Positions 1 to 38,365 of a stretch of DNA of 64,000 nt are shown in pieces; the stretch's first letter is position 1, and each line of letters opens with the position of its first letter. Source of the DNA: Eubacterium sp. UBA3782 (GTDB lineage: Bacteria; Bacillota; Clostridia; Lachnospirales; Lachnospiraceae); NCBI GenBank assembly GCA_002368795.1, contig DFFG01000003.1, positions 1-64,000 on the forward strand, given 5' to 3'. Both the position numbers and the translations under genes were made by a program. The notes under the pieces are model-generated. The model was not told where the DNA came from. It saw nothing but the letters and a program-made list of their open reading frames with translations, and ran no database searches.

Positions 1-815
1 CAGAAGCCGAGGCTGCTCGTATTGCAGAGGAAGAGCGTCTGGCAGCAGAAGCCGAGGAAGCCCGCATCGCAGAGGAAGAGCGCCTGGCAGCGGAGGCCGA
101 GGCAGCCCGCATCGCCGAGGAAGAACGTCAGAAAGCGGAAGCAGAAGCAGCTCGTATTGCGGAACAGGAGAGGCTGGCTGCGGAATCGGCCCGCCTTGCC
201 GAAGAGCGAGCCCGCATCGAGGCAGAGCGCGCAGCCCTGGCTGCAGAGCGTGAGCGGATGCTGGCCGAGATCGAGGAGACCAGAAGAAAGGCTGCAGCTG
301 CAGCACCGGCAGAGAACGGGATGGGCGGCAGCACACATAGGAAGGCAGCCCGGGCGCAGGAGACCGGTCGCCGTCCGGAGGCAGAACCGGTCAGAAACGA
401 AATGGGAACGCCCGTCCGCCTGAAGTTCTGTCCGAAGTGCGGCGCGAAGATCCGGGTTGGCGCAAGATTCTGTGTCACCTGTGGTTATGCCCTGGGCGCC
501 CGTCTGGATGCAGCACCTGGACAGGGAAGCCGGACGGAAGAGAGCGGGTTTACGGTGAAGACAAAAGGGGACCTGCGTCCCCGCACCCCCAAGGAGATGG
601 GGATCGAAAATATAGATGAGACGCAGTACGCCTGGACAGAGGAGGAGCGGTCCGCCAGAGATCAGGCAGAGCAGGAGGAATTCCGCCGCATGCTTGCGGA
701 GGACCGGGCCAGAGAATACCGGCAGAGGGAAAACGCCTCCGGAGCCAGGGGCTTTCGCACCGACCGGGTCGAGCGGCTTTCAAGAGGCGGAAAACGCGGC
801 AGAAATGAAGAGTGA
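1..815 (+). CDS. 5'-truncated CDS. Coiled-coil protein with tandem 15-aa ARIAEEERLAAEAEx repeats, a C4 zinc ribbon (CPKCGAKIRVGARFCVTCG) and a charged tail
   Basis: Frame 3 is open from nt 3 to the TGA at 813-815. The ORF track reports only the internal Met at 258, but the repeat-encoding frame continues to the window edge. A 45-nt DNA periodicity is visible at about 15-200. Confidence 0.6.
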   Translation, partial: EAEAARIAEEERLAAEAEEARIAEEERLAAEAEAARIAEEERQKAEAEAARIAEQERLAAESARLAEERARIEAERAALAAERERMLAEIEETRRKAAAAAPAENGMGGSTHRKAARAQETGRRPEAEPVRNEMGTPVRLKFCPKCGAKIRVGARFCVTCGYALGARLDAAPGQGSRTEESGFTVKTKGDLRPRTPKEMGIENIDETQYAWTEEERSARDQAEQEEFRRMLAEDRAREYRQRENASGARGFRTDRVERLSRGGKRGRNEE

Positions 816-889
816 TCCGGAACCGCCTGCAGCGGAGCCAGTATGTCAGACAGAGGACAGAAACAGGAGAAAGGAACGGGGGACAGGCT

Positions 890-2131
890 ATGGCAATAGC
901 AGAAGTAATCAAATTTGAAGGTGATCCGAATCAGCTGGTGTGGAAGCACCCAGCGGAGGATTTCAACACGACATCGCAGCTGATCGTCGATGAGACCCAT
1001 GAAGCACTTCTTGTGCTCAACGGCAATGCCGCGGATCTGTTCGGACCCGGCCGGCATACGCTGACGACGAACAATATCCCGATCCTGCGGAAGCTGCAGG
1101 AGATCCCCACCGGAGGGGCAACGCCGTTTCCGTGCAAGGTCTTCTTTATCAATAAGGTCCATCAGATGGATATGCTCTGGGGTACCCAGGGCGCGATCCC
1201 GCTGGAGGATCCGCTGTACGATATCTTCATGCATGTCATGCTTCACGGAAGCATTTCGGTGTCGGTGGATGATTCCAGGAAATTCCTCCTGAAGCTTGTC
1301 GGCTTCCGTGACCGGTTTGATGCCAATACACTGGTATCCAAATTCCGCGGGATCATTTCCAGCCAGGTAAAGGATGCTATCTCCAAGATCATGATCCGGG
1401 GCCAGCTCAGCTACTTTATGATCAGCTCAGAGCTTCTGGAGATCAGCGGTGTCGTCAAGGAAAGACTGGATGAAGTCTTTGACGAGTATGGCGTCCACAT
1501 CGAGTTCTTTAACATTGAAGCCATCGAGGTTCCGGACAAGGATTATGCCGAGATCTCGCAGGCCAAAAAGCTTCGTAGCAGCCGCCTGATCCAGGGCTAC
1601 ACCTGGCAGGAGGAGCGGCAGATGATGATCGCCGAAAAGTTTGCCGGCAATCAGGGCGCCATGGGAACCATCGGCGGGATGATGGGCGGCCTGGCCGGCG
1701 GCATTGCCATGGGCAGCACGATCGCAGAGGTGGCAAAGAATGCCCTGTCTGCAGACCGGATCCCCACACAGGCGCCACCAAAGAATGTGGCCGGAGCAGC
1801 TCCGGTCATGGGAGCAAATGCTCCCGGAGCGGCTGCAGGGCAGACGGTCGACGTATCCGCATTGCTGCGTCAGGGCGCAGGCGCTGCCCCTGCCCGGCCG
1901 GAAGTCCGGGAGGAGAGGATCAGTCCGGAGCAGATGCCGGAAAGGCAGCAGATGGAGGGTTACGGCAGAGAAGGAAAATTCTGTCCGGAATGCGGAAGTC
2001 CGGTTGCAGCCGGAGCAAAGTTCTGCTCTGAGTGCGGACACAAGATGGAAAGCAATGTCTGTCCGGGATGCGGCAGTCCCATCACGCCGGGCGCTAAATT
2101 CTGTTCCGAGTGCGGGACCCGTCTCATATAA
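890..2131 (+). CDS. SPFH/band-7-like protein of the YdjI type (COG4260, virion-core-protein-like) with a Gly/Met-rich linker and a C-terminal double zinc ribbon (three CPxCG..FCSECG modules)
   Basis: The ATG at 890 is preceded by GGGGGA. The N-terminus MAIAEVIKFEGDPNQLVWKHP...LVLNGNAADLFGPGRHTL has the YdjI-like shape. The C-terminus carries CPECGSPVAAGAKFCSECG, CPGCGSPITPGAKFCSECG. The upstream GTG at 812 is an alternative start. Confidence 0.6.
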   Translation: MAIAEVIKFEGDPNQLVWKHPAEDFNTTSQLIVDETHEALLVLNGNAADLFGPGRHTLTTNNIPILRKLQEIPTGGATPFPCKVFFINKVHQMDMLWGTQGAIPLEDPLYDIFMHVMLHGSISVSVDDSRKFLLKLVGFRDRFDANTLVSKFRGIISSQVKDAISKIMIRGQLSYFMISSELLEISGVVKERLDEVFDEYGVHIEFFNIEAIEVPDKDYAEISQAKKLRSSRLIQGYTWQEERQMMIAEKFAGNQGAMGTIGGMMGGLAGGIAMGSTIAEVAKNALSADRIPTQAPPKNVAGAAPVMGANAPGAAAGQTVDVSALLRQGAGAAPARPEVREERISPEQMPERQQMEGYGREGKFCPECGSPVAAGAKFCSECGHKMESNVCPGCGSPITPGAKFCSECGTRLI

Positions 2132-2284
2132 CTCACTCGGGGTGGCCCCGCCTCTATAGGCGGCAAGAACGCCAAGGCGTTCCTGAAGGATTTTTGAAAC
2201 ATGGAAAGACGGGCACAGCGGCCTGTCCGATAAGAGCAGCGGCCTGTTTCTGCTGCAGTAAAAGGAAAAGGAGAACGTAAAGGC

Positions 2285-2983
2285 ATGGCAAGAGTTACAA
2301 AAAAACGGACCGCCGGTATGATCGGCCTCATCTATCTGATTGCATTTGCAGTTTTCATTATGCTCGTTTTCTTTATCTTTAAAGACAGGAGCGGCGTCTT
2401 CTGGATGAGCTTTATCTTTGCGGTGATCGCCTTTGCCGTAAAGCTTGCCAGCACCTTCCTGGCGTTCCAGGCATTTGAAGTGGAAGCCGTCTTCTTTGGC
2501 ATTCCGCTGGCCTCGCTTTCTCTTTACTACTTTTTTGCCCAGGTGTTCTGTGCAGTCGTTTTCATGATCTTCCACAGCGCACCGGCCAAGCTGGCTTTCG
2601 CCCTTCAGGTGATCATTCTGGCAGTCTTTGCCATCGTCGCGATCATCACGCTGTTCACCAGAGATGCCATCCAGGATGTGGATGACAATATCAAGATCAG
2701 CACTACCGCCATCAAGACGATGCAGGCGGATGTGGAAAGCCTTCGCGATGCAGCAGGCGATCCGGAGCTGAAGAACCGTCTGCGCAAGCTGGCTGAGACG
2801 ATTAAGTATTCCGATCCGATGTCCAACGATGCGGTGCTGGATATTGAGGATCAGATCATGCAGTCGCTCTCTGAGCTGCGGATCTACTGTGAAGACAACG
2901 ACAAGGCAAATGCCATGCAGGCATGCAGAAACACGGAGATGCTGTTCCTCCAGAGAAACCGGACGCTCCGGGCAACAAAGTAA
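2285..2983 (+). CDS. Integral membrane protein (about 4 TM helices) with a C-terminal cytoplasmic coiled-coil segment. Hypothetical.
   Basis: Good RBS AAAGGAGAACG before the ATG. The N-terminal 120 aa are hydrophobic, followed by a charged helical tail. Confidence 0.6.
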   Translation: MARVTKKRTAGMIGLIYLIAFAVFIMLVFFIFKDRSGVFWMSFIFAVIAFAVKLASTFLAFQAFEVEAVFFGIPLASLSLYYFFAQVFCAVVFMIFHSAPAKLAFALQVIILAVFAIVAIITLFTRDAIQDVDDNIKISTTAIKTMQADVESLRDAAGDPELKNRLRKLAETIKYSDPMSNDAVLDIEDQIMQSLSELRIYCEDNDKANAMQACRNTEMLFLQRNRTLRATK

Positions 2984-2992
2984 GGACAGACT

Positions 2993-4996
2993 ATGGCTTC
3001 CAGTTACAAAAGTGTAAAATGTGACAGCTGCGGCGGTTCCCTGGTTTATTCCAGAGAAAAGAAGGTATGGATCTGCCGGTACTGCGGCAATGAGATCCGC
3101 CGGGAAGAGGAATACGACGGGCTGTATACGATCAAAAATGTCGTCCGGCAGACGATCACCGATACGGCGTACGGCAGGCTGGAGCAGGCCAGGCGCAACC
3201 TGGCCGAGTGCGAGAAGATCGATACCCGCTATGTGGGTACGCTGATCGCCAGGCTGTGCGTTCAGATGTTTACCCTGATCACGCCGGGCGAGTGTCCCCA
3301 GAGCGGGCAAAAGAGCCTGATCCGGCAGATCCGGCAGAACTATGAGGACCTGCAGAAGCTGGACCAGGGCATATCTGCAGAGGAAGAGGCGCTCTACGAA
3401 TCCTTCGACGGGAACGCAGATGTCTTTGCCGTTCTGGTCGTTGTGTTTGATTCCCTGGGCGACCGGGTGCATAAGGAATTTGCCGAAAACCTTCTGGATG
3501 CGGCAAAAGTATATTCAGAGCGGATCAATGACAGCCTCCTTCGGTATGCGATGCGCAGCAAAAAGCTGGAGCTGGCTGACCGGATCCTGGATAATGTGGA
3601 CAACATCCCCTGCAGGGCTGCTTTGCTGACCGTCCTTGCGGAATATCCGGATGGCGATAGCAAGCGGCAGCATGTGCGGGATCTGTTTCCGCGTGCCGGC
3701 CTTTCAAGGGATGAGAGAAAGGCAGTCGAGGGTTATCTGAAGACCACAAAGGACTGTCCGGAGACAAAGACAGCGGTCTATGCCGCCGGCGTCGAAGCTG
3801 GTGTACCGGCATCGATCACCTGTGTGGAGGAATATCTGCTGAAGGATCTCGGAGGCAGGATCGAAGACGTCCGAAAAGTGATCCGGCTGATCGCACAGGC
3901 AAAGCCGAACGATGCGGAGCTCTACCGGCTGATCACAGCGATCTTTACCGGACACAGCTTTCCGGTGGCCCAGGCGGAGCTTTCCGAGCTGGCATCCTCC
4001 GGATTGTATATCGTGGTCAACCCATCGGATATCCTCCGGATGCTGTCCAGACAGGAGCTTTCCCTTGATGAACGGCTGGCGCTGGTCGATCTGGCCCATC
4101 AGTTTAACAGCGACGCCCGCACAAATGATACGATCCTGGCAGAATATCTGAACCGGAACCGGGATGCGGCCGATATCCGTATTCCGGTGATCGAAAAGCT
4201 GCTCACCTATGTCCGGACGATCGCAACCGCGACGCTCAGCGAGTATGTGATACGGGTAACGACCGATGGGAAGCGAAAGCCCGAGGTCCTATCCAGGATC
4301 CTCGAGCTTGACCTGAACATGAGCTTTTTCCGGAGTCTGATGCAGCAGTACATGGCCGGATCCCAGGATCCGCCGGATGTAAAGGCAGAGATAACGGCGC
4401 TGCTTGGGCGCGCCGGGCTGACGGTCGATGCCGGCACGCTGCTGGATATGGCCTGCAGCTGCACACAGGAAAATGCCCTGGAGACGATCAACCTCGTCAA
4501 CCGGATGAAGCAGAGCGGCGTGCATATGCGGAGCGACGCACTGAGCATTTACTTGGAGAAGGCGGCGGGACGGCAGTATTATGCCGGGCTGATCTCCGCG
4601 CTGTATACCGAAGGATGCATCCTGTCCGGAAGGGCTGTGGCAAACTATGTGCTCTATGCCCGGATGAATGAGGAGGTAAAGCTCCGCAATCTGGAGACCT
4701 TTCTTGCAGCCTGCAGTGAGCCGGCAGGCAGCATAGCGGTTACCGTCAGTCATCTGGGACACCGGGTCGACTGCAGTCTGCTGCAGGCATACGTGCTGAC
4801 GGCAGGAGAAAGCCTCCCGACGGCCGGTCGGATCACCGACATGCTGAAGAGTACCGGTGCAAAGCTGAATGCAAACATCCAGGTGGACCAGGCAAATATG
4901 AAATTCAAAAAATACATCATGGACAACCGTCCGCAGCTTGGCGGCCAGACAGAGGCGCTGTGTGCGGACAACAAGGTGTTTTCCATGTTTTTCTAA
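2993..4996 (+). CDS. Hypothetical 667-aa protein with an N-terminal C4 zinc ribbon (CDSCGGS...CRYCGNE) and a large all-helical domain
   Basis: Uninterrupted ORF starting 9 nt after the previous stop. The cysteine pairs sit at the extreme N-terminus. Confidence 0.6.
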   Translation: MASSYKSVKCDSCGGSLVYSREKKVWICRYCGNEIRREEEYDGLYTIKNVVRQTITDTAYGRLEQARRNLAECEKIDTRYVGTLIARLCVQMFTLITPGECPQSGQKSLIRQIRQNYEDLQKLDQGISAEEEALYESFDGNADVFAVLVVVFDSLGDRVHKEFAENLLDAAKVYSERINDSLLRYAMRSKKLELADRILDNVDNIPCRAALLTVLAEYPDGDSKRQHVRDLFPRAGLSRDERKAVEGYLKTTKDCPETKTAVYAAGVEAGVPASITCVEEYLLKDLGGRIEDVRKVIRLIAQAKPNDAELYRLITAIFTGHSFPVAQAELSELASSGLYIVVNPSDILRMLSRQELSLDERLALVDLAHQFNSDARTNDTILAEYLNRNRDAADIRIPVIEKLLTYVRTIATATLSEYVIRVTTDGKRKPEVLSRILELDLNMSFFRSLMQQYMAGSQDPPDVKAEITALLGRAGLTVDAGTLLDMACSCTQENALETINLVNRMKQSGVHMRSDALSIYLEKAAGRQYYAGLISALYTEGCILSGRAVANYVLYARMNEEVKLRNLETFLAACSEPAGSIAVTVSHLGHRVDCSLLQAYVLTAGESLPTAGRITDMLKSTGAKLNANIQVDQANMKFKKYIMDNRPQLGGQTEALCADNKVFSMFF

Positions 4997-5033
4997 GCTT
5001 CGGGCGAATATTGCAGAAAAGGAGGGATAAAGC

Positions 5034-6800
5034 GTGACGCAGGAAGAATACGAGGCTGAGCAGGCCGAAATAGAATCGTTGATTAATCAGATCAATGCGC
5101 TGATCGCCGAAAACAACCGGCTGATCGATGAGATCAACAATGCACTGCATAATATTCAGATCCTGAAGAACAACGTCGGCGTGCTGGGCAGAAACATCGA
5201 GCCCAAGATGCGCAGCGTTTCCGGAGAAGTGGAGCTTGACGCAGACAAGACAAAAGCTGTCAGCAATGCGCTCCAGGAGATGACCGAACAGTACTTTACG
5301 TTCAAGACCCTGTCCTCGGCATCCAAGAATCTGTCCCAGTATACGGACGAGTATTATGCGAAATACCAGCATTACAACAAGCTCCGCCGGATCGCTCTTG
5401 GCTATGTGATCGGGCTGGACAACAATTTTGTTTCTGATGAGACCCTGCGCAAGGAGGTCGAGAAGATCTACCTCCAGAACACGGAATACTGGCTCGCCTA
5501 TGCGGCATCGGCCGTCATGCTCTGGGCCAGCGATGAAAAAGAGGCGGCAAAGCGTGCGCTGGACAAAGCCATTTTCATGGACGAGACCAAGGCCAGCCTG
5601 TATTTCATGCTGATCAACCTCCGGTTTGGCAGGGACAAGGTTGCCAGAGAGTGGTTCCTCTACTACATGGAGCGTGTGGATTCCGGCCATCTTCCCGAGG
5701 ACTGGAAGTATCTTCTGCAGGCCTATCTGACCGGAACCTTCGGGACAGATCCCGAATTCCAGAAGCTGGTCGCGACACGGATGAATGCCATGCTGGCCAA
5801 GGAGGAGGCCACAACGGTCGACTTCGGGAAAAAGTTCAGCAGCCGGGCGTACCAGTACATCGATACGCATCTGCACACCACCAGGGAGGCCTTCCCCTAC
5901 CTGAAACAGACCTGTGCGGATCATGGCCAGATGATGGAGATGCTCTCCGACGCAGAGAAGAATGCGGTCATTGCCGCCTGGTACAATGCGCTGGCCGAGG
6001 AAAAGGACGAGCAGTCCGGCTTCATCGCCCAGAGGATCGAGAATGTTCTTTATGCGCTGGTCAGCAGCTATGATGACGGAGAGCTGGAGATCGTCAAAAA
6101 GATCCGCTACAACGACTGTATCCTGACGGCAAAGGGCGATGTGGCCAGAGCCCAGGAAAAATACGAGCTGGAGTTCCCGCCAAAGAAGAGGACGACCTTT
6201 GGGGATCTGCTGGCAGACTGGGCTTTCCAGGAGGACAGCAACCTGACGCCGCTGCTGATCCGCCGGTTCGCCATCGATCTGATGAAGGACTGGATCTTCA
6301 AGGGCTACGAGCAGTTCAACCGTGACAATCTCCAGAAGGAGAAGAAGGAATACACCTTTGATATCGACGGCTGCGAGGTGACCACATCAGAGACCGGATA
6401 TGAACGGGCAAAGACCAGGGTCGACCAGTTTTTTGAGAAGAACAAATGGAAGAGCATAACCGCCGACAAATTCGCGCTGATCTTTATGCTGATGAGTGTA
6501 TGCGGTGTGCTTCTTTTGGGCATCATGGCAGTTACGGCTGTCGGCGCCCATGGATTTGGCACAGGAGCGAGGATCGCTCTGGTTACCGGTATCCTGCTGG
6601 TCCTTGCGGGTGTATTCCTGCTATGGCGGCGTATCGTAGAAGTGCTGGCGGCACTCCAGGAAAAGAAGCGGCTCGCTCTGCAGAAGCTGGCCCACTCCCT
6701 GGAGGAGCTGGGCAGATGGCGCGAGCTGTTCCATAAAGAAGCAGACAGGATCAGTGATCTGGAGAGGGCCGTGAGCGAATTCGGTCCATCCGCGCGGTAA
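5034..6800 (+). CDS. Paralog A of a triplicated family. It has an N-terminal coiled coil, a conserved core (YWLAYAASAVMLW...LINLRFGRDKVAREWFLYY), a C-terminal two-helix membrane hairpin and a short coiled tail.
   Basis: GTG start at 5034 with GGAGGG 7 nt upstream. The protein aligns by eye to the products of 6816-8417 and 10693-12390 over about 120 aa. Confidence 0.65.
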   Translation: MTQEEYEAEQAEIESLINQINALIAENNRLIDEINNALHNIQILKNNVGVLGRNIEPKMRSVSGEVELDADKTKAVSNALQEMTEQYFTFKTLSSASKNLSQYTDEYYAKYQHYNKLRRIALGYVIGLDNNFVSDETLRKEVEKIYLQNTEYWLAYAASAVMLWASDEKEAAKRALDKAIFMDETKASLYFMLINLRFGRDKVAREWFLYYMERVDSGHLPEDWKYLLQAYLTGTFGTDPEFQKLVATRMNAMLAKEEATTVDFGKKFSSRAYQYIDTHLHTTREAFPYLKQTCADHGQMMEMLSDAEKNAVIAAWYNALAEEKDEQSGFIAQRIENVLYALVSSYDDGELEIVKKIRYNDCILTAKGDVARAQEKYELEFPPKKRTTFGDLLADWAFQEDSNLTPLLIRRFAIDLMKDWIFKGYEQFNRDNLQKEKKEYTFDIDGCEVTTSETGYERAKTRVDQFFEKNKWKSITADKFALIFMLMSVCGVLLLGIMAVTAVGAHGFGTGARIALVTGILLVLAGVFLLWRRIVEVLAALQEKKRLALQKLAHSLEELGRWRELFHKEADRISDLERAVSEFGPSAR

Positions 6801-6815
6801 AGGGGGGAAGAAAAG

Positions 6816-8417
6816 ATGTCAAATGTTTCCGGTGCAATACAGGAGCTGAACGAGACGATCAACTCCTTTGAATCAAAGGTCGACGTACATGTACAGAATA
6901 TTCACCAGTCCAGCGTAAACGTGGATGCTGCTGCAGACCGGATCTACCAGAAGATCGTGCAGTTCCGGCAGGATATGGAGCATGGCGAGCAGAAGCAGCT
7001 TGCCCATGAGAACATCATCCGTATCGACCAGATCATCAAGGAGCAGTTCAGCAATTACGAGACGATCCGCCGTACCGTCATGGGCGTTGTGAGGGACTTC
7101 GATATCAATCTTGTCCGCAACACGACGATCCAGGAGCTCTCTGAGGAGCTCTGGATCACCAGCTCCCGCTACTGGCTGTCCTATGCGCTGATCGCCATCA
7201 CCGCATGGGTAAACAATTACCCGGAGGTGGCAAGAAACGCGCTGGCTGAGAGCGGACGGAAGGATGCCGTCAAGACGACGCTGTTTTTCTGCCTTCTCAA
7301 TCTGCGCTTCAACCGGATCGATACGGCGAAAAGCTGGTTCTATGAGTACCTCAAGACCCTGGATCCGACGATGCTCCAGCAGGAGACGGCTGTCATGCTG
7401 CAGGCGTTTCTCGCAGGGATCTTCGGCAAGGACCAGGAGCTGCAGCATGCGGTGATCGATGTCATCGACCAGTGGATCTCCATCATCAATGAGAGCCAGG
7501 AGATCTGCGATGAGCTGGTCGGCTCCTACGAGAGCTATATCCGCAACATCAATCCCATGGTCGACTTCAATTACGAGGCGATCCTTACCTACTGCACCAA
7601 TGCGGAGGAGCTGAAGCGCTCCTTTACCGATGTGTCGAAATACGCCAGCATTCTGGATCTTTTGGATTCCCTGAATGTGCAGGAGGTCACCCAGAGCAAC
7701 GACAACTATGCCGAGCGTGTGGATGCCGTGCTGATGAACCTGATCTCCAACTATGATGCAGAGGAGCTGGATCTTCGGAACCAGCAGGAGTATTTCAACC
7801 TGATCGTCCGCAACGAGGGACAGGTCGACCGTGCCGAGGCCCAGTATGCGGAAGAGATGGCACTGCAGAATGAAAACTTCAACATCGGCAAGCAGATGAT
7901 CAAATGGGCGATCTATGATGACAACGACACAACAGATCCCCATGTGCGCAAGTTCGGCTTCCAGAACACCAAACAGTGGTTCAAGAGCGCGCTGGACCGG
8001 TTCAGCGTATCCCTGCAGCAGCAATTCCCCATCGAGTATAATCTGTCCATCGACACCTGGACCGGTACGAGCAGCGGGGATGACCAGGAAGAGCTGACCG
8101 AGAACATGCGCAGCTACTTTGAGACAAATAAGTTCCACAATATGTATGTCAACACCATCAACATCGCCGCGCTGATCGTACTGATCGCATCTCTGGGCCT
8201 TGCGTTTGTCACGCTGTATGCCCTGGTCGCTTCCGTCGCGGCGGCGGCCGTACTGATCTACCGGGTCATCAAGGCAAACAAGGAATATCCGGCAAGAGTC
8301 AATGCGGCTCTGGAGGCGTTAAACCAGACGCTGCTGGAGATCGCCGACTTCCGGGATTACTTCGCGCAGTGCAGCCTGCAGAAGGATGAGATCCTCTCCA
8401 CCGTGGAATTCATCTGA
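6816..8417 (+). CDS. Paralog B of the triplicated family (core YWLSYALIAITAW...LLNLRFNRIDTAKSWFYEY, C-terminal TM hairpin)
   Basis: RBS GGGGGGAAG before the ATG. It shares the motif order with paralogs A and C. Confidence 0.65.
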   Translation: MSNVSGAIQELNETINSFESKVDVHVQNIHQSSVNVDAAADRIYQKIVQFRQDMEHGEQKQLAHENIIRIDQIIKEQFSNYETIRRTVMGVVRDFDINLVRNTTIQELSEELWITSSRYWLSYALIAITAWVNNYPEVARNALAESGRKDAVKTTLFFCLLNLRFNRIDTAKSWFYEYLKTLDPTMLQQETAVMLQAFLAGIFGKDQELQHAVIDVIDQWISIINESQEICDELVGSYESYIRNINPMVDFNYEAILTYCTNAEELKRSFTDVSKYASILDLLDSLNVQEVTQSNDNYAERVDAVLMNLISNYDAEELDLRNQQEYFNLIVRNEGQVDRAEAQYAEEMALQNENFNIGKQMIKWAIYDDNDTTDPHVRKFGFQNTKQWFKSALDRFSVSLQQQFPIEYNLSIDTWTGTSSGDDQEELTENMRSYFETNKFHNMYVNTINIAALIVLIASLGLAFVTLYALVASVAAAAVLIYRVIKANKEYPARVNAALEALNQTLLEIADFRDYFAQCSLQKDEILSTVEFI

Positions 8418-8484
8418 CCGGAAAGACAAAGGGAAAATATACAAGTGACCGGCAACGGGACAGACAGTGCAGAAAGGATAGATT

Positions 8485-8694
8485 ATGGAAAACGAATTCG
8501 GATTCAATGCATATGAAGAGCAGGACGGACAGGACAATCAGATGTCGGATTTTGAGTCCCTGATGGCGGAGCGTATTCAGTCCAACTTCGCGGCAGAGAG
8601 CGGAAGCCTTTCGGCGACGGATGAGCGGCTGCAGGAAATGAACAAGCGGCTGCCGGACTGGAGCCTTGAGCCGCCCTACAGCTTCCTGAAATAA
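8485..8694 (+). CDS. Small acidic protein of 69 aa. Hypothetical.
   Basis: RBS AAAGGATAG before the ATG. It lies in an operon context between paralog B and the next gene. Confidence 0.45.
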   Translation: MENEFGFNAYEEQDGQDNQMSDFESLMAERIQSNFAAESGSLSATDERLQEMNKRLPDWSLEPPYSFLK

Positions 8695-8697
8695 ACA

Positions 8698-9180
8698 ATG
8701 ACAGCAAAGGCACCTTCAAATTATCAGGAATGGATGGCCATTATGGACGCCCTTGCGGAGGGCAGGTCCGGACCCGAAAGCCTTTCCCTGATGGAGGAGG
8801 GGACGCTGCCGGAGGGCGCGTATGTCACCGGCCGTTTTCAGCAGCGGGTCACCGATACGGTCAACCGGATGCTCCGGCGGAGCATCCGCCGTTTTGAGCA
8901 GCGCTTTTCGGAGGCCCTTTCCGAGCGGGGGACAGACACTGTGCAGCTTCTTCTTGCACGGCTGCATAAGGAGCTTGCCCTGTGCTTTTTCTTCCGAAGG
9001 ATGCCGTTTCTGGATGAATGCTTTCGAAATGAGCTGGAGACTGCCCTTTTGGGGGAGATCCGGAAATTCTGGAGGCATGAGATCCGGGAGATCCGGCGCC
9101 TTGCCGAGCTGCCAGGCCATGCAGAACTTGAGGAAGTCATGTATTCCATGAAGCGATTCGCAAAGGAATACGGAGAGTAG
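8698..9180 (+). CDS. Hypothetical 160-aa helical protein
   Basis: Starts 4 nt after the previous stop, suggesting translational coupling. Uninterrupted frame, same strand. Confidence 0.5.
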   Translation: MTAKAPSNYQEWMAIMDALAEGRSGPESLSLMEEGTLPEGAYVTGRFQQRVTDTVNRMLRRSIRRFEQRFSEALSERGTDTVQLLLARLHKELALCFFFRRMPFLDECFRNELETALLGEIRKFWRHEIREIRRLAELPGHAELEEVMYSMKRFAKEYGE

Positions 9181-9181
9181 G

Positions 9182-10696
9182 ATGGGAAATTACAGCACGA
9201 CCAAAACCGAAATTAAAAACTATATCTTTGCCAGGGTGCCCCTCATCATCATTCAGTCGGCCGAGCGGGCCAGAGTGGAGCGGATGATCGCTGAGACAGC
9301 CAGGGAGATGCGGATCGAGGTGACCTGCTACTCGGATACAAAGCAGATCTACCGCCCGGGCCAGGACACGATCCGGGATGTGGAGAGCGATCCGATCCCC
9401 TTTGCCATGGAGCTGCTTCGCCGCAAGAGGGGAACGACCTTTGTGCTGGCAGATGTGCGCAGGGTCAGTGAGGAGAACCTGTACAGTCGGGAGATCGTCA
9501 ATCTCCTGTATCTGGCCGCAGAGATGGGAGGCACAGTGATCCTGATCACGCCGGATCCTGTGTGGGCAAGGATCGCCCGGATGGGCATGCTGACCAGGCT
9601 CGATCTTCCCGATATGGATGAGCGGACCGCCGAGATCCGTGAATTCGTCCGGCGGTATGGTTCGCGGTATTCCATCGCCTGGGATGAGAACGATATCCAG
9701 CGCGCATCTGCGCTCCTGAGGGGATTTACAGAGATCCAGATCGACAACATCCTGTCTTCCGCGCTGGTGGAAAACGGCGCGCTGGACCGGCGGCATATCT
9801 ATGAGCTGACGAGCCAGAAAAGCCGGATGTACGAGGCAGCCGCAGGCGTCCAGGAGGTCAGGGTCAGCGGGGACCTGCGGATCTCAGGCCTGGACAACCT
9901 GAAGCAGTGGCTGGCAGAAAAGAAGAGGATCTTTTTTGCATCAGAGGAGGAGCTGGCCGCGCGCGGCCTGCAGACGCCAAAGGGGATCCTTCTGGCCGGC
10001 ATCCCGGGATGCGGAAAATCCTTCTCCGCCCGGATGGTTGCCAGAGAGTGGGAACTTCCGCTGTTCAAGTTCGATATCGGCAGCATCTACGACAAATGGG
10101 TCGGAGAGAGTGAGCACCGGATGGCGGATGCCCTGCAGTTTATCGACAATGTTGCGCCCTGCATCGTATGGATCGATGAGATCGAGAAGGCTCTTTCGGT
10201 CTCGGACAGCAGCAACGATACCGGGCAGCGGGTGCTGGGCCAGTTCCTGTTCTGGCTTCAGGAGTCATCAAGCCGCGTATTTCTCGTGGCAACGGCAAAT
10301 GACATCCGAAAGCTGCCGCCGGAGCTGTTTCGCAAGGGCAGGTTCTCGGAGATGTTCTTTGTCGATCTGCCGACAGCAGTCGAGCGGGCGGAGGCCATCA
10401 CCCAGTACATGGAACAGTGCCTGCACAGGACGCCCGACGCGGGCAGCCTGCAGGAGCTGGTTGGAAGAACAAAGGGATTTTCCTATGCGGATATTGAATA
10501 TATGGTAAAGGAGGCTGCCCAGAAGGCACTTCTTTACGGGGATGATGCGGTCAGCAGCGATATGCTTCTGGAACTGACAGAGAAGGTCATCCCGTTTGCA
10601 GATACCAATCCGGACGTGGTCTCCCAGCTGAGAAGCTGGGGAAATTCGCGGGCAGCCGCAGCGTCGCTTCCGGAGAAGGGAGGAAATGAGGCATGA
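9182..10696 (+). CDS. Classical-clade AAA+ ATPase. The N-terminal ~230 aa look like a degenerate ATPase-like domain. The C-terminal module has Walker A GIPGCGKS, Walker B IVWIDEIE and an SRH ([29 protein letters not shown]).
   Basis: Motifs read directly from the translation. The KWVGESE segment after Walker A resembles the Vps4/spastin/katanin-type KW(M/V)GE(S/G)E. The stop overlaps the next start (ATGA at 10693-10696). Confidence 0.75.
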
Positions 10697-12390
10697 GCGA
10701 TATAGGCAGCCTGAGGGCAGAGCTGGCCAGGCAGGAAAGGATCAATGCGGAGCTGCGCAGCGATCTGTGGGAGCTGGAGAGCGGCGTCAGCAGCGCACAC
10801 AGCCGGCTGAATGAATTCCAGAATAAGACGAACAACACGCTTTCCGGAAGCACACAGCGGATGATCAGCTCTCATAACCGCATCGTGGAGGCCTACGAGA
10901 TCCAGGGCGAGATCGACCATCTGTATGAGCGCTTCAAGCAGGTCGAGCTGGCCAACAAAAAGATCCGTGCCTGCAACAATAAAAAATATTACGAGTTTGC
11001 CAATTACCGTACCGTGCGTAAGCTGGTCCAGGGCATCATGGACAATATGGACATGAACATGGTCTCGGATGAGGTGATCTACAAGTCGGTGGAGAAACAG
11101 CATCTGCAGACCCCAGACTACTGGCTCACCTGTGTGCTGATCAGCATCATGGCCTGGAAAAATGACGACAGGGAGCTGGCAGAACGGGCCATGGCCCGGG
11201 CGATCTCGCTGGACAAGAAGGACAGCGCGATCTTCTACATGCTGTTCCACCTGCGTCTGGGCCGTGAGGAGACGGCGCTCAAATGGTTCTATCTCTATCA
11301 GGAGTGCGACCTGAAGGGCAGCGATGAGCAGACCTTCCTGCTGCTGTTTTCCCTCATGACCAAGACCCTGGATGATTTCGTGGATGATCATACCAAGTAT
11401 GAGATCTACAGCTTTATCAACAAGGTGATCGCCATGAGTGCAAGATCGGCCGGCTTCTCCGAGGAGGAGATCATCCGGCAGATCGAAAACTATCTGATCG
11501 CCATGAAAGACACCGACAACCTTCAGCTCAATCTGCTGAAGCGGTGCATGGACGATTACGGCGAGATCGCCGAGACAGTGATCCTCGCTGAAAACAACAA
11601 AACGATCCTGCAGTTCCTCATGGACGTACGCAGCGTCACGGAGATCGAGAGAAACGCCTACATCAGCAAATTCATCGACGATGTGATCGCAAAGCCGAAC
11701 CAGACCGAGCAGGAGGTCTACGATGAGATCGAATACAACGAGTGCATCATCCGGTGCGACGGCTATGTCGACCAGGCAAAGGAGATGTACCTGAAGGAGC
11801 AGGAGCGCCGGAAAAAGGAGCTGAATCTCATCAAGGAGATGGTCCGCAGGGTGTACGAGAGCTCAGGTGAAGAGGTCAACGGACAGGTCAAAAAGAACAT
11901 GTTCGTCCTGACCGGAGGCCTGCAGCGGAAGGCGATCAGCCGTTATGCCGAGGATTACCGGTCCAGGGTGACAGATGTGCATCCGGTCTCTCTGGGAGAG
12001 TACAGGACGACCGCCGATTTCCGGGATCAGGCCGGCGAGCAGCGGAAGATCGAAGAATACTACGAAACCCAAAAGGCAGAGCAGCTGGCCCAGGTCAAGG
12101 ACTGGCCCGCCTTCGTCGGCTTTGCTCTGGCCGTCGCCTGTGCAGCAGGCGCAGCCTTCGTAAGCCTTATGCTGCTGGCAGGCACCGCGCTTGGACTGAT
12201 CTTCGGCTTCGTACGGCTGCTGATGAACAGCCGGCAGAGAAAGCAGATCGCCAGTGACTGTGCAGTCAATATCAGCAGCAAGACGGATCTTCTCGACCGT
12301 CTCTTTGCAGAATACGAGCAGCTAAAGACTATCTTTTATGAATACGATGCCTACCAGGAGCAGATCGCTGCCGAACTCGGCAAGTTCTGA
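10693..12390 (+). CDS. Paralog C of the triplicated family (core YWLTCVLISIMAW...LFHLRLGREETALKWFYLY, C-terminal TM hairpin)
   Basis: Start overlaps the AAA+ gene stop. Same motif order as paralogs A and B. Confidence 0.65.
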   Translation: MSDIGSLRAELARQERINAELRSDLWELESGVSSAHSRLNEFQNKTNNTLSGSTQRMISSHNRIVEAYEIQGEIDHLYERFKQVELANKKIRACNNKKYYEFANYRTVRKLVQGIMDNMDMNMVSDEVIYKSVEKQHLQTPDYWLTCVLISIMAWKNDDRELAERAMARAISLDKKDSAIFYMLFHLRLGREETALKWFYLYQECDLKGSDEQTFLLLFSLMTKTLDDFVDDHTKYEIYSFINKVIAMSARSAGFSEEEIIRQIENYLIAMKDTDNLQLNLLKRCMDDYGEIAETVILAENNKTILQFLMDVRSVTEIERNAYISKFIDDVIAKPNQTEQEVYDEIEYNECIIRCDGYVDQAKEMYLKEQERRKKELNLIKEMVRRVYESSGEEVNGQVKKNMFVLTGGLQRKAISRYAEDYRSRVTDVHPVSLGEYRTTADFRDQAGEQRKIEEYYETQKAEQLAQVKDWPAFVGFALAVACAAGAAFVSLMLLAGTALGLIFGFVRLLMNSRQRKQIASDCAVNISSKTDLLDRLFAEYEQLKTIFYEYDAYQEQIAAELGKF

Positions 12391-13066: not shown

Positions 13067-13106
13067 CAGGCAGACATCTGTTGACAAGGCAGATGCCTGC
13101 CTTTTA
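13067..13106 (+). terminator. Hairpin GGCAGACATCTG...CAGATGCCTGCC followed by TTTT, downstream of the nitroreductase gene
   Basis: Inverted repeat with one mismatch, followed by a T-run. Confidence 0.45.
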
Positions 13107-13110
13107 TAAT
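13081..13110 (+). promoter_or_regulatory. Sigma-70-type promoter for metA: TTGACA, 18 nt spacer, TATAAT. The -35 box lies in the loop of the upstream hairpin.
   Basis: Consensus hexamers at 13081-13086 and 13105-13110, about 27 nt upstream of the metA start. Confidence 0.5.
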
Positions 13111-38194: not shown

Positions 38195-38365
38195 TAACTG
38201 ATCTTCAGGGCGGGGTGCAATTCCCCACTGGCGGTAAAGTCCGCGAACCGAAAGGCCGAACCGGTGAAACTCCGGTACCAACAGTACAGTCTGGATGAAA
38301 GAAGATACCAAATTTGTTTTTAAATTTTGCAATGCCCTGGATCTTTGATTCGGGGCATTTTTCTG
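38195..38365 (+). promoter_or_regulatory. FMN riboswitch (RFN element) with an intrinsic terminator expression platform
   Basis: CTTCAGGGCGGGGTGCAATTCCCCACTGGCGGTAAAGTCCGCGA...GGTGAAACTCCGGTACCAACAGTACAGTCTGGATGAAAGAAGAT matches the RFN consensus. Terminator ATGCCC..GGGGCAT TTTTT at about 38330-38362. Confidence 0.85.

Follow-up and report, generated by a model that had tools for sequence, protein, structure and literature searches.

A conserved gene cluster of gut Clostridia encoding a predicted tandem AAA ATPase, putative hairpin-anchored coiled-coil proteins and a YdjI-type SPFH protein

Introduction

In Bacillus subtilis, PspA is brought to the membrane by YdjGHI (PMC8581546; bioRxiv 10.64898/2026.02.06.704340). 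Within this set, YdjI combines a soluble SPFH domain with a low-complexity stretch and a zinc finger at its C-terminus (PMC8581546). SPFH/zinc-ribbon proteins can also be included in archaeal ESCRT loci (PMC10936438). As for ATPases, the combination of an inactive with an active classical AAA domain is known in vWA-MoxR conflict systems (PMC7159879), and "inactive-classical-AAA + classical-AAA" proteins have been reported beside PspA and beside a membrane-anchored Snf7-like protein, from which ATP-dependent remodelling of a sub-membrane assembly has been inferred (PMC11237479).

The locus described here lies at positions 1–12,390 of a 64,000-nucleotide stretch of DNA from Eubacterium sp. UBA3782 (contig DFFG01000003.1), hereafter the window. 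It belongs to a gene cluster that is real, strongly conserved, and previously undescribed in gut Clostridia. Literature searches found no described system that matches it, and the non-ATPase core proteins match no model in Pfam, NCBIfam, PADLOC, or PHROGs. An earlier note on this DNA had known of no system of such composition, and this holds: PADLOC returned only IetA, against the AAA domain, NCBIfam and PHROGs gave no match for the non-ATPase proteins, and literature searches were negative.

Results

Layout of the locus

Ten consecutive open reading frames, all on the plus strand, make up the locus (Table 1). The packed ten-gene arrangement proposed earlier stands, except that the first frame is a fragment of a longer gene. 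The spacers in gene order are 74, 153, 9, 37, 15, 67, 3, 1, and −4 nt, a range of 1–153 nt plus one overlap rather than the 2–70 nt given before, and g9/g10 is the sole ATGA overlap, where two had been counted. Because the window starts inside a protein of 804–877 aa, the 5′ end of the locus is cut; this truncation had been overlooked, and g1 had been taken for a 185-aa gene. The complete g1 gene (L003:7512-9926) encodes three N-terminal zinc ribbons, a tandem repeat, and a fourth ribbon, with Pfam Zn_Ribbon_1 matching four times (E 2.1e-28), and the protein length differs between samples (804, 832, and 877 aa). The repeat, 45 bp × 13.8, encodes AEEERLAAEAEAARI, and the part of g1 in the window consists of the end of this repeat and the fourth ribbon. 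With a g1-like protein at only 2 other loci, g1 is a variable neighbour outside the conserved core.

Table 1. Positions and features of the ten genes of the locus.
Gene	Position	Strand	Feature
g1	1..815	+	C-terminal ~270 aa of an 804–877-aa multi-zinc-ribbon protein
g2	890..2131	+	soluble YdjI-type SPFH protein, Band_7_1 and C-terminal double zinc ribbon
g3	2285..2983	+	232-aa membrane protein, four predicted TM segments
g4	2993..4996	+	667-aa soluble protein, N-terminal zinc ribbon
g5 (paralog A)	5034..6800	+	GTG start; predicted coiled-coil hairpin, TPR-like domain, membrane hairpin
g6 (paralog B)	6816..8417	+	paralog nearest to the single copy of minimal modules
g7	8485..8694	+	69-aa acidic protein, invariant C-terminal peptide
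g8	8698..9180	+	160-aa core protein, no predicted TM segment
g9	9182..10696	+	predicted tandem classical AAA ATPase
g10 (paralog C)	10693..12390	+	most divergent of the three paralogs

Conservation in Clostridia

The same gene order, namely the SPFH/zinc-ribbon protein, the 4-TM protein, the 667-aa zinc-ribbon protein, A, B, a ~60-aa protein, a ~160-aa protein, the AAA ATPase, and C, recurs in 57 of 59 species-level genome loci of Clostridia, so the arrangement exceeds what chance would give and is not peculiar to the source genome. All of g5, g6, g7, g9, and g10 are present in 56 of the 59. The flanks are not conserved (the 204 nearest ORFs fall into 184 clusters) and consist of housekeeping genes, with no enrichment of integrases or defence genes.

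In 23 of 51 Clostridia loci, genes for a HerA-like ATPase, an acidic ~840-aa protein, and an HD protein lie between the 667-aa gene and A, an optional insert of the relatives that had been overlooked. The HerA-like protein is of the HerA/DUF87 type and has no predicted TM anchor; its gene is missing from the source window, as it is from roughly half of the loci overall. Recurrent neighbours of the expanded and the minimal forms alike are an M48 (HtpX-type) zinc-ribbon peptidase and YARHG proteins.

The SPFH/4-TM/zinc-ribbon triad

The identification of g2 as a YdjI-like SPFH protein is borne out by its domain order, which is that of YdjI (PMC8581546): a Band_7_1 domain (PF13421, E 7.9e-36), a Gly/Ala/Pro-rich linker, and two C-terminal zinc ribbons (Pfam DZR, 1.9e-12), with no hydrophobic segment in a hydropathy scan. 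The 51 related ORF matches stand first in their cluster every time. The gene kept directly 3′ of g2 in related loci, g3, encodes the small 4-TM protein noted before; the scan places four hydrophobic segments within residues 1–130 (TM ~7–130), followed by a helical, predicted cytoplasmic tail of ~100 aa, and no family was found in Pfam, NCBIfam, or PADLOC. Next to it in related loci is g4, whose N-terminal CxxC...CxxC ribbon (SYKSVKCDSCGG...CRYCGN) is matched weakly by Pfam zinc-ribbon models (E 0.013–0.05), while the remaining ~630 aa belong to no family and the hydropathy scan found no TM segment. Its N-terminus weakly resembles the start of B. subtilis YdjG, MIISYKCPNC, as read from a primer (PMC8581546).

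In Clostridia, the core is thus joined to an SPFH/zinc-ribbon, 4-TM, and zinc-ribbon triad that parallels YdjI/H/G. Like pspA-ydjGHI (samGHI), the locus combines the gene for a soluble SPFH protein ending in a zinc finger after a low-complexity stretch with two further genes, one for a small polytopic membrane protein and the other for a protein whose N-terminus carries a zinc ribbon. The genes stand in the reverse order, however, and no PspA was found in the locus, as had been stated before. The correspondence to YdjH and YdjG is merely positional because g3 lacks the TPM domain of YdjH and the 667-aa g4 lacks a TM segment, which YdjG has. The "effector" slot is occupied by three TPR/coiled-coil hairpin proteins, two small proteins, and the tandem AAA ATPase, which are absent from the B. 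subtilis operon.

The three paralogs

A, B, and C are related to one another (BLASTP 3e-44, 9e-34, and 3e-30, the latter two being C against A and against B), and a hydropathy scan revealed a ~45-residue hydrophobic stretch near each C-terminus (442–488 in B, 471–513 in C). The AF2 model of A consists of an N-terminal two-helix coiled-coil hairpin (~2 × 58 residues), a TPR-like domain, a membrane helical hairpin (479–535) whose extracytoplasmic loop is very short, and a cytoplasmic helix at the C-terminus, both ends being cytoplasmic. Of the three coiled-coil/hairpin paralogs proposed earlier, the relatedness and the hydrophobic stretch were thus found in all, and the hairpin was modelled for A. 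In this model, B-family proteins are wholly cytoplasmic and tethered by a helical hairpin, with a long coiled-coil hairpin and a TPR-like domain. Their invariant residues Y152, W153, W164, R197, R200, W207, and Y211 concentrate in four short helices (153–214).

Paralog B is more similar than A or C to proteins of Comamonas, Komagataeibacter, Streptococcus, and Fusobacterium (BLASTP 4e-39 to 5e-48). It is likely the ancestral subunit because, of the three, it comes nearest to the one copy that minimal modules in other phyla have, and the comparison shows that Clostridia carry the B gene in triplicate, as A, B, and C. The position of C 3′ of the AAA gene is conserved (58 ORF matches). The paralogs were also considered as ESCRT-III proteins and rejected: the B-family profile found only coiled-coil noise in the PDB, and 38 family members had no Snf7 or PspA_IM30 match among the Pfam families listed.

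The small core proteins

The g7 protein ends in an invariant peptide, ...KRLPDWSLEPPYSFLK. A C-terminal alignment of >90 unique orthologs from Clostridia, Proteobacteria, Fusobacterium, and streptococci revealed the motif LPxWx[LIV]xPP (LPxWxΦxPP) to be common to the phyla, while the N-terminal part is variable (55 to 195 aa). Judged from the alignment, an invariant C-terminal motif on a variable body is typical of a docking peptide, which g7 might therefore carry. No library, including Pfam, NCBIfam, PADLOC, and PHROGs, holds a family for it, and the same is true of g8 in the libraries searched. The latter is a core component always positioned between the small protein and the AAA ATPase; it matches a 184-aa Comamonas protein from residue 1 (BLASTP 4e-10), and its orthologs are mutually related at 1e-21 to 1e-47. 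Its start is most likely at 8698 since the first residues align with distant orthologs.

The tandem AAA ATPase

The earlier assignment of g9 to the classical AAA ATPases agrees with Pfam (PF00004, E 6.9e-29) and the segment DKWVGESE. Its first domain (D1, residues 1–216) is degenerate, without Walker A or B, while D2 (~235–470) has both intact, together with the pore loop KWVG, sensor N373, and Arg 384/387, and is followed by a conserved C-terminal tail, R..WG..RA..AS. The catalytic and pore-loop residues are invariant across orthologs. Alignment of D1 with D2 (hhalign probability 65%, E 5.9e-5) is accompanied in the AF2 model by a D1 topology that repeats that of D2. Sequence matches in the PDB were D2 domains of VAT/Cdc48/p97 (1e-44), and Foldseek with the full-length model returned Drg1/AFG2, NVL, Rix7, and Cdc48 (E ~1e-21, TMq 0.67–0.73, 540–580 aligned columns). 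From sequence and model, g9 is predicted to be a tandem AAA of the Cdc48/NVL/AFG2 type in which D1 is dead and D2 active. The label "Vps4-like" had to be given up, as g9 is a tandem protein with no MIT domain and its best matches are Cdc48, NVL, and AFG2. On the side of a Vps4 relation, NCBIfam CdvC scored 3.2e-24, below the model cutoff. The best PADLOC match, IetA, covers D2 only (residues 253–467), and phrog_8638, a phage family without assigned function, matches the AAA at 5e-88.

The core module beyond Clostridia

Comparison across phyla showed the core to be a four-gene unit of a B-family protein, the small LPxWxΦxPP protein, the ~160-aa protein, and the tandem AAA, a module that the earlier note had overlooked. 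In unrelated bacteria, this core of four to five genes occurs patchily in Pseudomonadota (Comamonas and plasmids of Komagataeibacter), Fusobacteriota (Fusobacterium), and Bacillota (oral streptococci), with AAA orthologs that are full length and 36–39% identical; 331 metagenome stretches hold it as well. In the minimal modules, the partner alternates between P160 (a ~160-aa Cys/His protein) and a HerA-like ATPase, the latter in many cases directly upstream of B. With 833 clusters at 50% identity in a set of 1.84 billion representatives, the system is rare, and the module is very rare in phages (1/50,697), plasmids (4/72,556), and IMG/VR (1 locus); the B family and the AAA D1 domain were found in the identical 4 plasmid records and the identical phage record. 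The Komagataeibacter carriers are plasmids of 26 and 38 kb, with the module beside an IS3 element and an integrase, and in a Streptococcus satellite-prophage record the module stands at the record end; carriage by the Javan368 satellite is uncertain. In an IMG/VR predicted provirus, it adjoins two large serine recombinases, a DUF2779 protein, and a MoxR/VWA pair. Minimal-module flanks contain HTH_3 (7), Phage_integrase (3), serine recombinases (2), and IS110 (2), and the module behaves as a discrete cassette since streptococcal loci have nothing but the module in common.

Discussion

The full-length fold of g9 resembles Cdc48/p97, NVL/Rix7, and AFG2/Drg1, and its D2 shares with them intact Walker A/B motifs, sensor 1, Arg fingers, and an aromatic pore loop. 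Unlike these proteins, g9 is a bacterial, operon-encoded protein of 504 aa, accompanied by presumed adaptors, that lacks the N-terminal double-psi-barrel/adaptor-binding domain and has lost the Walker motifs of D1, and the locus contains no ubiquitin-like or proteasome partner. By analogy, its logic would match that of Cdc48/p97, which anchored adaptors recruit to membranes, as in ERAD. In architecture, g9 is like the AEY64320-type ATPases, whose partners are also membrane-proximal coiled-coil/α-helical proteins (PMC11237479); the partners here are, however, neither PspA nor Snf7, and the B family, the LPxWxΦxPP protein, the ~160-aa protein, P160, and the SPFH fusion are not described there. 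An SPFH protein, a classical AAA motor at the membrane, and a nearby M48 (HtpX-family) peptidase recall HflK/C-FtsH and HtpX, but g9 has no protease domain or TM anchor, g2 is a soluble YdjI-type protein rather than HflK/C, and the M48 gene, a variable neighbour, does not belong to the fixed set.

The occurrence of the core across phyla, partly on plasmids and integrative elements, opens the possibility, which we consider somewhat unlikely, of an anti-phage or anti-mobile-element system of the abortive-infection type; the earlier note had brought up defence only as something to exclude. The hairpin-anchored B-family proteins would then be membrane-disrupting effectors or the anchors of such effectors, the tandem AAA and its adaptors a sensor/switch, and P160, HerA, the putative peptidase, and the HD protein exchangeable sensor/effector add-ons. 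The patchy distribution, the cassette behaviour, and the mobile-element genes beside minimal modules are consistent with this, as are the match to phrog_8638 and the P160/HerA swap, which is typical of conflict systems. The weak top Foldseek matches of paralog A, to tripartite α-pore-forming toxins, point the same way. With vWA-MoxR-"FtsH" systems and IetAS, the locus shares an inactive N-terminal and an active C-terminal classical AAA and system-specific α-helical proteins, but it contains no MoxR, vWA, or IetS protease. Arguing against defence are the housekeeping flanks in Clostridia, the rarity in phages, plasmids, and IMG/VR, the doubtful satellite carriage, and the lack of PADLOC matches outside the AAA domain. 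In the window, there is no nuclease, NADase, or other classical effector; moreover, conservation is strong in both the B family and the motif of the small protein, and fusion with the YdjGHI-like triad suggests membrane physiology.

The HerA-like ATPase, the several membrane proteins, and the abundant zinc ribbons could instead point to a translocation or secretion apparatus, in which a HerA/FtsK-type ATPase and the AAA power DNA or protein movement across or along the membrane on a platform of A/B/C and the 4-TM protein. This seems improbable: HerA is not essential to the core because it is absent from about half of the loci and alternates with P160, and it lacks a predicted TM anchor; the locus encodes no channel-forming polytopic protein, secretin, pilin, WXG100 substrate, or signal-peptide protein, and the modelled extracytoplasmic loop of A is very short. 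The already disfavoured reading of A, B, and C as diverged PspA/Snf7 paralogs served by a Vps4 ortholog is very improbable. In its favour are the long N-terminal helical hairpins of the paralogs, as modelled for A, and the classical-clade AAA with its match to CdvC below the cutoff. As in ESCRT-III/Vps4 (CdvB/CdvC), the AAA gene is accompanied by those of several paralogs that form helical hairpins and would act at the membrane, and SPFH proteins are linked to PspA and archaeal ESCRT loci (PMC10936438). The paralogs, however, lack the ESCRT-III fold and would be integral hairpin-anchored proteins rather than peripheral polymers, and g9 is a tandem rather than a single AAA.

The membrane-associated AAA remodelling module of the earlier note is kept as the best reading, and we tentatively regard the locus as encoding an accessory and self-contained AAA+ machine that is docked at the membrane and serves remodelling or extraction. 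A link to membrane stress is suggested by the YdjI architecture of g2 and by the recurrent M48 peptidase and YARHG neighbours, and the inactive-plus-active AAA proteins beside PspA and a Snf7-like protein (PMC11237479) offer a precedent. Beyond fold and architecture, we infer a mechanism in which a Cdc48-like unfoldase docks, on the inner side of the cell membrane, to proteins held there by hairpins. Through their coiled coils, A, B, and C may assemble beneath the membrane as a receptor or scaffold, with the C-terminal peptide of the small protein, which might bind the TPR-like groove or the ATPase, and the ~160-aa protein as adaptors or regulators. The hexameric ATPase would thread polypeptide through its D2 pore, leading either to scaffold disassembly or to the pulling of client proteins from the membrane, while the SPFH triad might concentrate the machine in a membrane patch, as YdjGHI do for PspA. 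The patchy, rare distribution does not fit a general housekeeping stress system; in the cell, this remodelling machine may respond when the membrane or envelope is damaged, phages being one possible cause of such damage.

Gene layout of the locus

Ten ORFs on the + strand fill positions 1-12390 of the window (g1 to g10, in order). Pfam searches agreed with the earlier note in finding an SPFH domain in g2 (Band_7_1, E 7.9e-36, together with a double zinc ribbon), zinc ribbons in g1 and g4, and a classical AAA domain in g9 (E 6.9e-29), and hydropathy analysis gave g3 the four transmembrane segments that had been proposed, while g2 has no hydrophobic segment, i.e. it is soluble. The three large proteins g5, g6 and g10 (paralogs A, B and C, hereafter the B family) are true paralogs, as supposed (BLASTP E-values 3e-44, 9e-34 and 3e-30), and each carries the expected anchor, a hydrophobic stretch of ~45 residues close to the C-terminus. 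The earlier description of the spacing, 2-70 nt with two ATGA overlaps, stood only in part: the measured values are 74, 153, 9, 37, 15, 67, 3, 1, and -4 nt, and the ATGA overlap is present only at g9/g10. The ORF previously counted as gene 1 is only the C-terminal part of a protein of 804-877 aa that is cut by the window start. The complete g1 codes for four zinc ribbons, and it contains ~13.8 tandem copies of a 45-bp unit that encodes AEEERLAAEAEAARI. In otherwise near-identical contigs of different samples the protein is 804, 832, or 877 aa long, which is a repeat-number polymorphism, and the repeat is part of a charged spacer between the zinc ribbons that is probably a single helix.

A promoter and terminator scan of the window found no convincing internal + strand terminator and no clear promoter. 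Downstream of the locus lie a nitroreductase gene, metA, and transporter genes. The stretch that separates the nitroreductase gene from the homoserine O-succinyl/acetyltransferase (HTS) gene contains a terminator-like stem-loop, which overlaps with a perfect consensus for sigma-70 (TTGACA, 18 nt, TATAAT), and no riboswitch was detected at this site; the sole Rfam family at gathering score in the 64-kb window was an FMN riboswitch (RF00050, 109.9 bits).

Coordinates of features in the window and in related loci (L-numbers)
Feature	Location	Strand	Remark
g1 tandem repeat	window 1-815; L003:8613-9271		complete g1 in L003
g2	window 890-2131	+	SPFH/zinc-ribbon protein
g8	window 8698	+	probable start
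g9	window 9182-10696	+	AAA ATPase
Stem-loop/sigma-70 site	window 13075-13110	+	terminator-like
FMN riboswitch	window 38197-38310	+	RF00050
M48 peptidase/YARHG pair	L003:5127-7315	opposite to the locus	divergent, just upstream of the window
Three-gene insert	L012:3526-9955		also in L011 and others
Split g4 ortholog	L009:7887-9889		Roseburia hominis CP159990
AAA-C interval	L031:15639-17262		one Oscillospiraceae genome
P160	L072:12075-12557		partner of ~160 aa
P160	L074:7519-8004		
P160	L073:1106-1576		
P160	L075:11923-12417		

Conservation in Clostridia

The identical locus is present on a 92-kb gut-metagenome scaffold. When one genome per species was scanned and all ORFs were mapped with phmmer, 59 loci were found in Lachnospiraceae, Oscillospiraceae, Christensenellaceae, and Acutalibacteraceae, with Hungatella hathewayi, Pseudoflavonifractor phocaeensis, and Roseburia hominis among the named carriers (cultured strains include H. 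hathewayi WAL-18680 and P. phocaeensis An569). The gene neighborhood proved to be conserved across these species-level loci, which share the order g2-g3-g4-[insert]-A-B-g7-g8-AAA-C with deviations in just two. Paralogs A, B, and C, the small protein g7, and the AAA ATPase occur together in 56 of the 59, and the triad of g2, g3, and g4 is present in 47. Between g4 and A, 23 of 51 loci, but not that of the window, contain a three-gene insert coding for a HerA/DUF87-type ATPase of ~900 aa, a very acidic protein of ~840 aa, and an HD_4-like protein, whose length ranges from ~160 to 387 aa among relatives. Judged by eye, the acidic protein resembles a papain-type Cys/His peptidase at its C-terminus (TCGETSMAN...DHW); a Pfam search for this reading gave no match. 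The flanks are unconserved, with the 204 nearest ORFs falling into 184 clusters, and the cluster is therefore a self-contained unit. Flanking ORFs in Clostridia are mostly of housekeeping type, and the sole recurrent family is that of extra zinc-ribbon proteins.

Several individual loci deserve mention. A zinc-ribbon M48 (HtpX-type) peptidase gene and a gene for a YARHG-domain membrane protein are found beside g1 in L003, and this pair, or a lone YARHG protein, adjoins the cluster in L009 (R. hominis), L014, L015, and L058, as well as the smaller modules L122 and L148 described below. The 667-aa g4 ortholog of R. hominis is split into ORFs of 292 and 372 aa, and an uninterrupted copy is present in L010, a near-identical contig that comes from a sequencing run, which suggests a frameshift or sequencing error. 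In L031, ~1.6 kb, possibly an insertion, separates the AAA gene from paralog C; the two genes abut or overlap elsewhere.

A minimal module beyond Clostridia

With paralog A as the tblastn query, distant homologs (22-26% identity over ~75% of the protein) were found in a Comamonas antarctica megaplasmid, two Komagataeibacter nataicola plasmids of 26 and 38 kb, Fusobacterium vincentii, and the Streptococcus satellite-prophage record Javan368. In every such plasmid or phage record, the homolog lies within one common small operon, which encodes a B-like protein of ~572 aa, a small protein of ~60-70 aa, a g8 homolog of ~154-186 aa, and an AAA protein of ~515-525 aa that is orthologous to g9 over the full length, N-terminal half included (36-39% identity). 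On the Komagataeibacter plasmid NZ_CP134889, the minimal module spans positions 1106-5629. The N-terminal half of this ATPase matches the same four plasmid records and one phage record as the B family does, and paralog B is the closest of the window's three to the single-copy proteins of the minimal modules. The operon of each record also encodes a further partner of ~160 aa, designated P160, upstream or downstream of the other module genes. P160 has the motif KCYLGxPYEVH and invariant Cys and His residues; the invariant residues are Cys93, His102, His113, and Glu140 in Javan368 numbering. P160 accompanies minimal modules that lack a HerA-like gene. A profile of P160 gave no relative in the PDB, and a comparison of P160 with the C-terminal domain of the ~840-aa acidic protein showed the two to be unrelated (hhalign probability 0.3%).

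A metagenome scan yielded 331 further stretches, and the 80 retrieved from these contain the module in two forms, either with P160 after the AAA gene or with a HerA-like ATPase gene directly upstream of B. In a collection of 1.84 billion representative proteins, clustering at 50% identity divides the B family into 833 clusters. The family is real, discrete, and rare. A scan of viral contigs found a single locus. Streptococcal loci other than Javan368 share just the module with that record, and the satellite itself may not carry the module. For the B family, the small protein, the g8 family, and P160, no model exists in Pfam, NCBIfam, PADLOC, or PHROGs.

The body of the small protein varies from 55 to 195 aa, while its C-terminus is an invariant LPxWx[LIV]xPP in all lineages. 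Long versions of ~150-200 aa occur in some oral and gut lineages (L105-L115, L118, L130, L134, and L137); they keep the C-terminal peptide, and their expanded middle matches the charged g1 repeat in phmmer searches, which is probably a compositional effect.

Fold and class of the ATPase

The earlier note regarded g9 as a Vps4-like ATPase. Such enzymes consist of an N-terminal MIT domain and a single AAA cassette, whereas g9 aligns over its full length to tandem D1-D2 ATPases. In its AF2 model (pLDDT 82.6), residues 1-216 make up a second, degenerate AAA module, in which five strands and a four-helix lid repeat the AAA topology, such that the topology of D1 equals that of D2; D1 lies at the very N-terminus (helix 4-16, strand 21-25), and the protein lacks an N domain. 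D1 lacks Walker A and B, with IIQSAERAR at the P-loop position and FVLADV at the Walker B position, while the catalytic and pore-loop residues of D2 are invariant. The two halves are related to each other (hhalign E 5.9e-5), and in Foldseek searches the whole protein aligns to Drg1/AFG2, NVL, Rix7, and Cdc48/p97 (E ~1e-21, TMq 0.67-0.73, 540-580 columns). The best PDB matches by sequence are the D2 domains of Cdc48/VAT. Because the D1 sequence profile matched no AAA protein in the PDB, the assignment of D1 is based on the hhalign comparison and on the AF2 model together with Foldseek. From the tandem fold, the Walker-less D1, and the invariant D2, g9 is classed as a Cdc48-type unfoldase with a dead D1 and an active D2 and without an N domain, and not as a Vps4-like ATPase. 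Its score against the NCBIfam CDC48 model is 98.5 bits with a cutoff of 802, and that against FtsH is 93 bits with a cutoff of 600. g9 also matches phrog_8638, a phage family of unknown function (E 5e-88, residues 137-499), and is the sole core protein with a PHROG; phages therefore encode a close relative of the tandem AAA protein.

Architecture of the B family

The AF2 model of paralog A (pLDDT 84.5) begins with a hairpin of two ~58-residue helices, followed by a helical domain at 130-435 and then a beta hairpin; a membrane helical hairpin (479-535), whose turn takes up ~5 residues, and a long C-terminal helix complete the chain. The model places both ends of the protein on one side of the membrane. 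On inspection of the translations, the N-termini of the family are hydrophilic coiled coils with no signal peptide. The best PDB matches of the whole model in Foldseek were AhlB, SmhB, and MakA (E 0.03-0.3, TM 0.11-0.26). Since these matches are only weak (E at least 0.03), likeness to pore-forming toxins was not accepted, and the candidate identification of the paralogs as tripartite alpha-pore-forming toxins (AhlABC, SmhABC, Hbl, and Nhe), which are secreted and have a ClyA-family fold bearing a hydrophobic head, was rejected, also in view of the missing signal peptide and the location of both ends on the same side.

Comparison with known systems

Homology to the ESCRT-III/Vps4 system was rejected because no subunit has an ESCRT-III/Snf7/PspA fold and the ATPase is a tandem protein most similar to Cdc48/VAT D2. 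The absence of PspA noted earlier was upheld, in that PspA_IM30 (PF04012) matched none of the ten proteins; a search of ORFs of at least 60 aa in the 64-kb window likewise gave no match, although this search with an E. coli PspA query is a weak test. A parallel to the triad is the pspA-ydjGHI system of Bacillus subtilis, in which YdjGHI localize PspA (PMC8581546; bioRxiv 10.64898/2026.02.06.704340). The architecture of YdjI, a soluble SPFH protein with a C-terminal zinc finger, is also that of g2 (PMC8581546). YdjH, however, has a TPM domain, while the four transmembrane segments of g3 come with neither TPM nor any other Pfam domain, and YdjG is a zinc-ribbon membrane protein, while g4 has an N-terminal ribbon but no transmembrane segment (PMC11237479 for YdjG and YdjH). 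The N-terminal residues of g4 bear a faint sequence resemblance to those of YdjG.

The tandem classical AAA cassettes of g9 are common to Cdc48/p97 type II ATPases, which in addition have an N-terminal double-psi barrel for substrate or adaptor binding and a nucleotide-binding D1, both missing from g9. In HflK/C-FtsH, the AAA domain is fused to an M41 protease with transmembrane anchors and the SPFH proteins are membrane anchored, whereas g9 has neither Peptidase_M41 nor a transmembrane segment and g2 is soluble. Proteins combining an inactive and an active classical AAA domain have been reported beside PspA and also beside a membrane-anchored Snf7-like protein (PMC11237479). These ATPases (AEY64320/CKH37208 type) have the same architecture as g9. 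The 120 g9 homologs among the matches listed are all orthologs at least 57% identical.

In the defence catalogue PADLOC-DB v2.0.0, with libraries up to 2023, IetA was matched by g9 alone (6.9e-28, residues 253-467), and the full IetAS system (IetA plus the IetS protease) was not found; other matches of window proteins were weak (ZorA tail, 2.9e-4; PDC-S64, 1.7e-3; LeoB, 0.025), and the minimal-module proteins likewise gave AAA-domain IetA matches alone. NCBIfam and PHROGs had nothing for the non-ATPase proteins. Literature searches by accession and keyword returned no description of the module, in accordance with the earlier view that no such system had been described. The parts belong to known fold classes, and both an AAA protein with membrane-proximal helical proteins and an SPFH recruitment set have precedents; what is undescribed in the searched libraries and literature is the composition, the three unmodeled core families, and the cross-phylum module.

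Possible function of the module

The conserved, transferable core combines a Cdc48-type motor with two small proteins and a hairpin-anchored protein of coiled-coil/TPR-like build, and in Clostridia the anchor protein is triplicated and the core is joined to the SPFH/4-TM/zinc-ribbon triad. In the mechanism inferred from this, A, B, and C would make up a receptor or scaffold under the membrane, the C-terminal peptide of the small protein and the g8 protein would link this scaffold to the ATPase, and the ATPase would act at the membrane by unfolding a target or extracting it. The SPFH triad would position the machine as YdjGHI do for PspA. We tentatively propose, at somewhat less than even confidence, that the core is an undescribed, horizontally mobile, cross-phylum system in which dedicated adaptors, anchored in the membrane of the bacterium, provide the docking site for a Cdc48-like unfoldase. 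Such a system would be a bacterial analogue of the eukaryotic machines that extract membrane proteins (ERAD/p97, Msp1) and could serve envelope repair or act as a new abortive-infection defence. We further propose that the Clostridia locus, with triplicated adaptors and a YdjGHI-like SPFH recruitment triad, is the most elaborate form of this system. A theme of membrane quality or stress fits the recurrence of M48/HtpX-type peptidase and YARHG neighbors and the occurrence of inactive-plus-active AAA proteins beside PspA and beside a Snf7-like protein.

That the module is a defence or conflict system is a serious rival reading, which we consider less likely than not. It is rare and patchily distributed, and its contexts include plasmids and recombinases, as such a role would have it, but it hardly ever occurs in the collections of phages and plasmids, and its flanks in Clostridia are of housekeeping type. 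The exchange of P160 and HerA as partner and the phage relative of the ATPase speak for conflict, against which stand the lack of a defence-system match in PADLOC and the streptococcal loci, where the module alone is common to Javan368 and the others; the satellite itself may not carry it.

Segregases of the Cdc48/p97 type, which pull proteins from membranes or complexes, are characteristic of archaea and eukaryotes. To our knowledge, no bacterial counterpart with membrane adaptors dedicated to it has been established. Here such an ATPase is paired, in a compact, conserved, and transferable module, with three families for which Pfam, NCBIfam, PADLOC, and PHROGs offer no model. The SPFH/zinc-ribbon set to which the module is joined in gut Clostridia serves in B. 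subtilis to recruit PspA, an ESCRT-III homolog. If the proposed membrane-docked unfoldase mechanism is true, the module would offer a tractable bacterial model, of four to five genes, for ATP-driven remodeling at a membrane and would help to explain what YdjI-type SPFH proteins recruit in the absence of PspA. If it is instead a defence system, it would be a new, membrane-acting type carried by bacteria that are abundant in the gut and mouth of humans and animals. Under both readings, the invariant LPxWxΦxPP peptide provides a concrete, testable handle.
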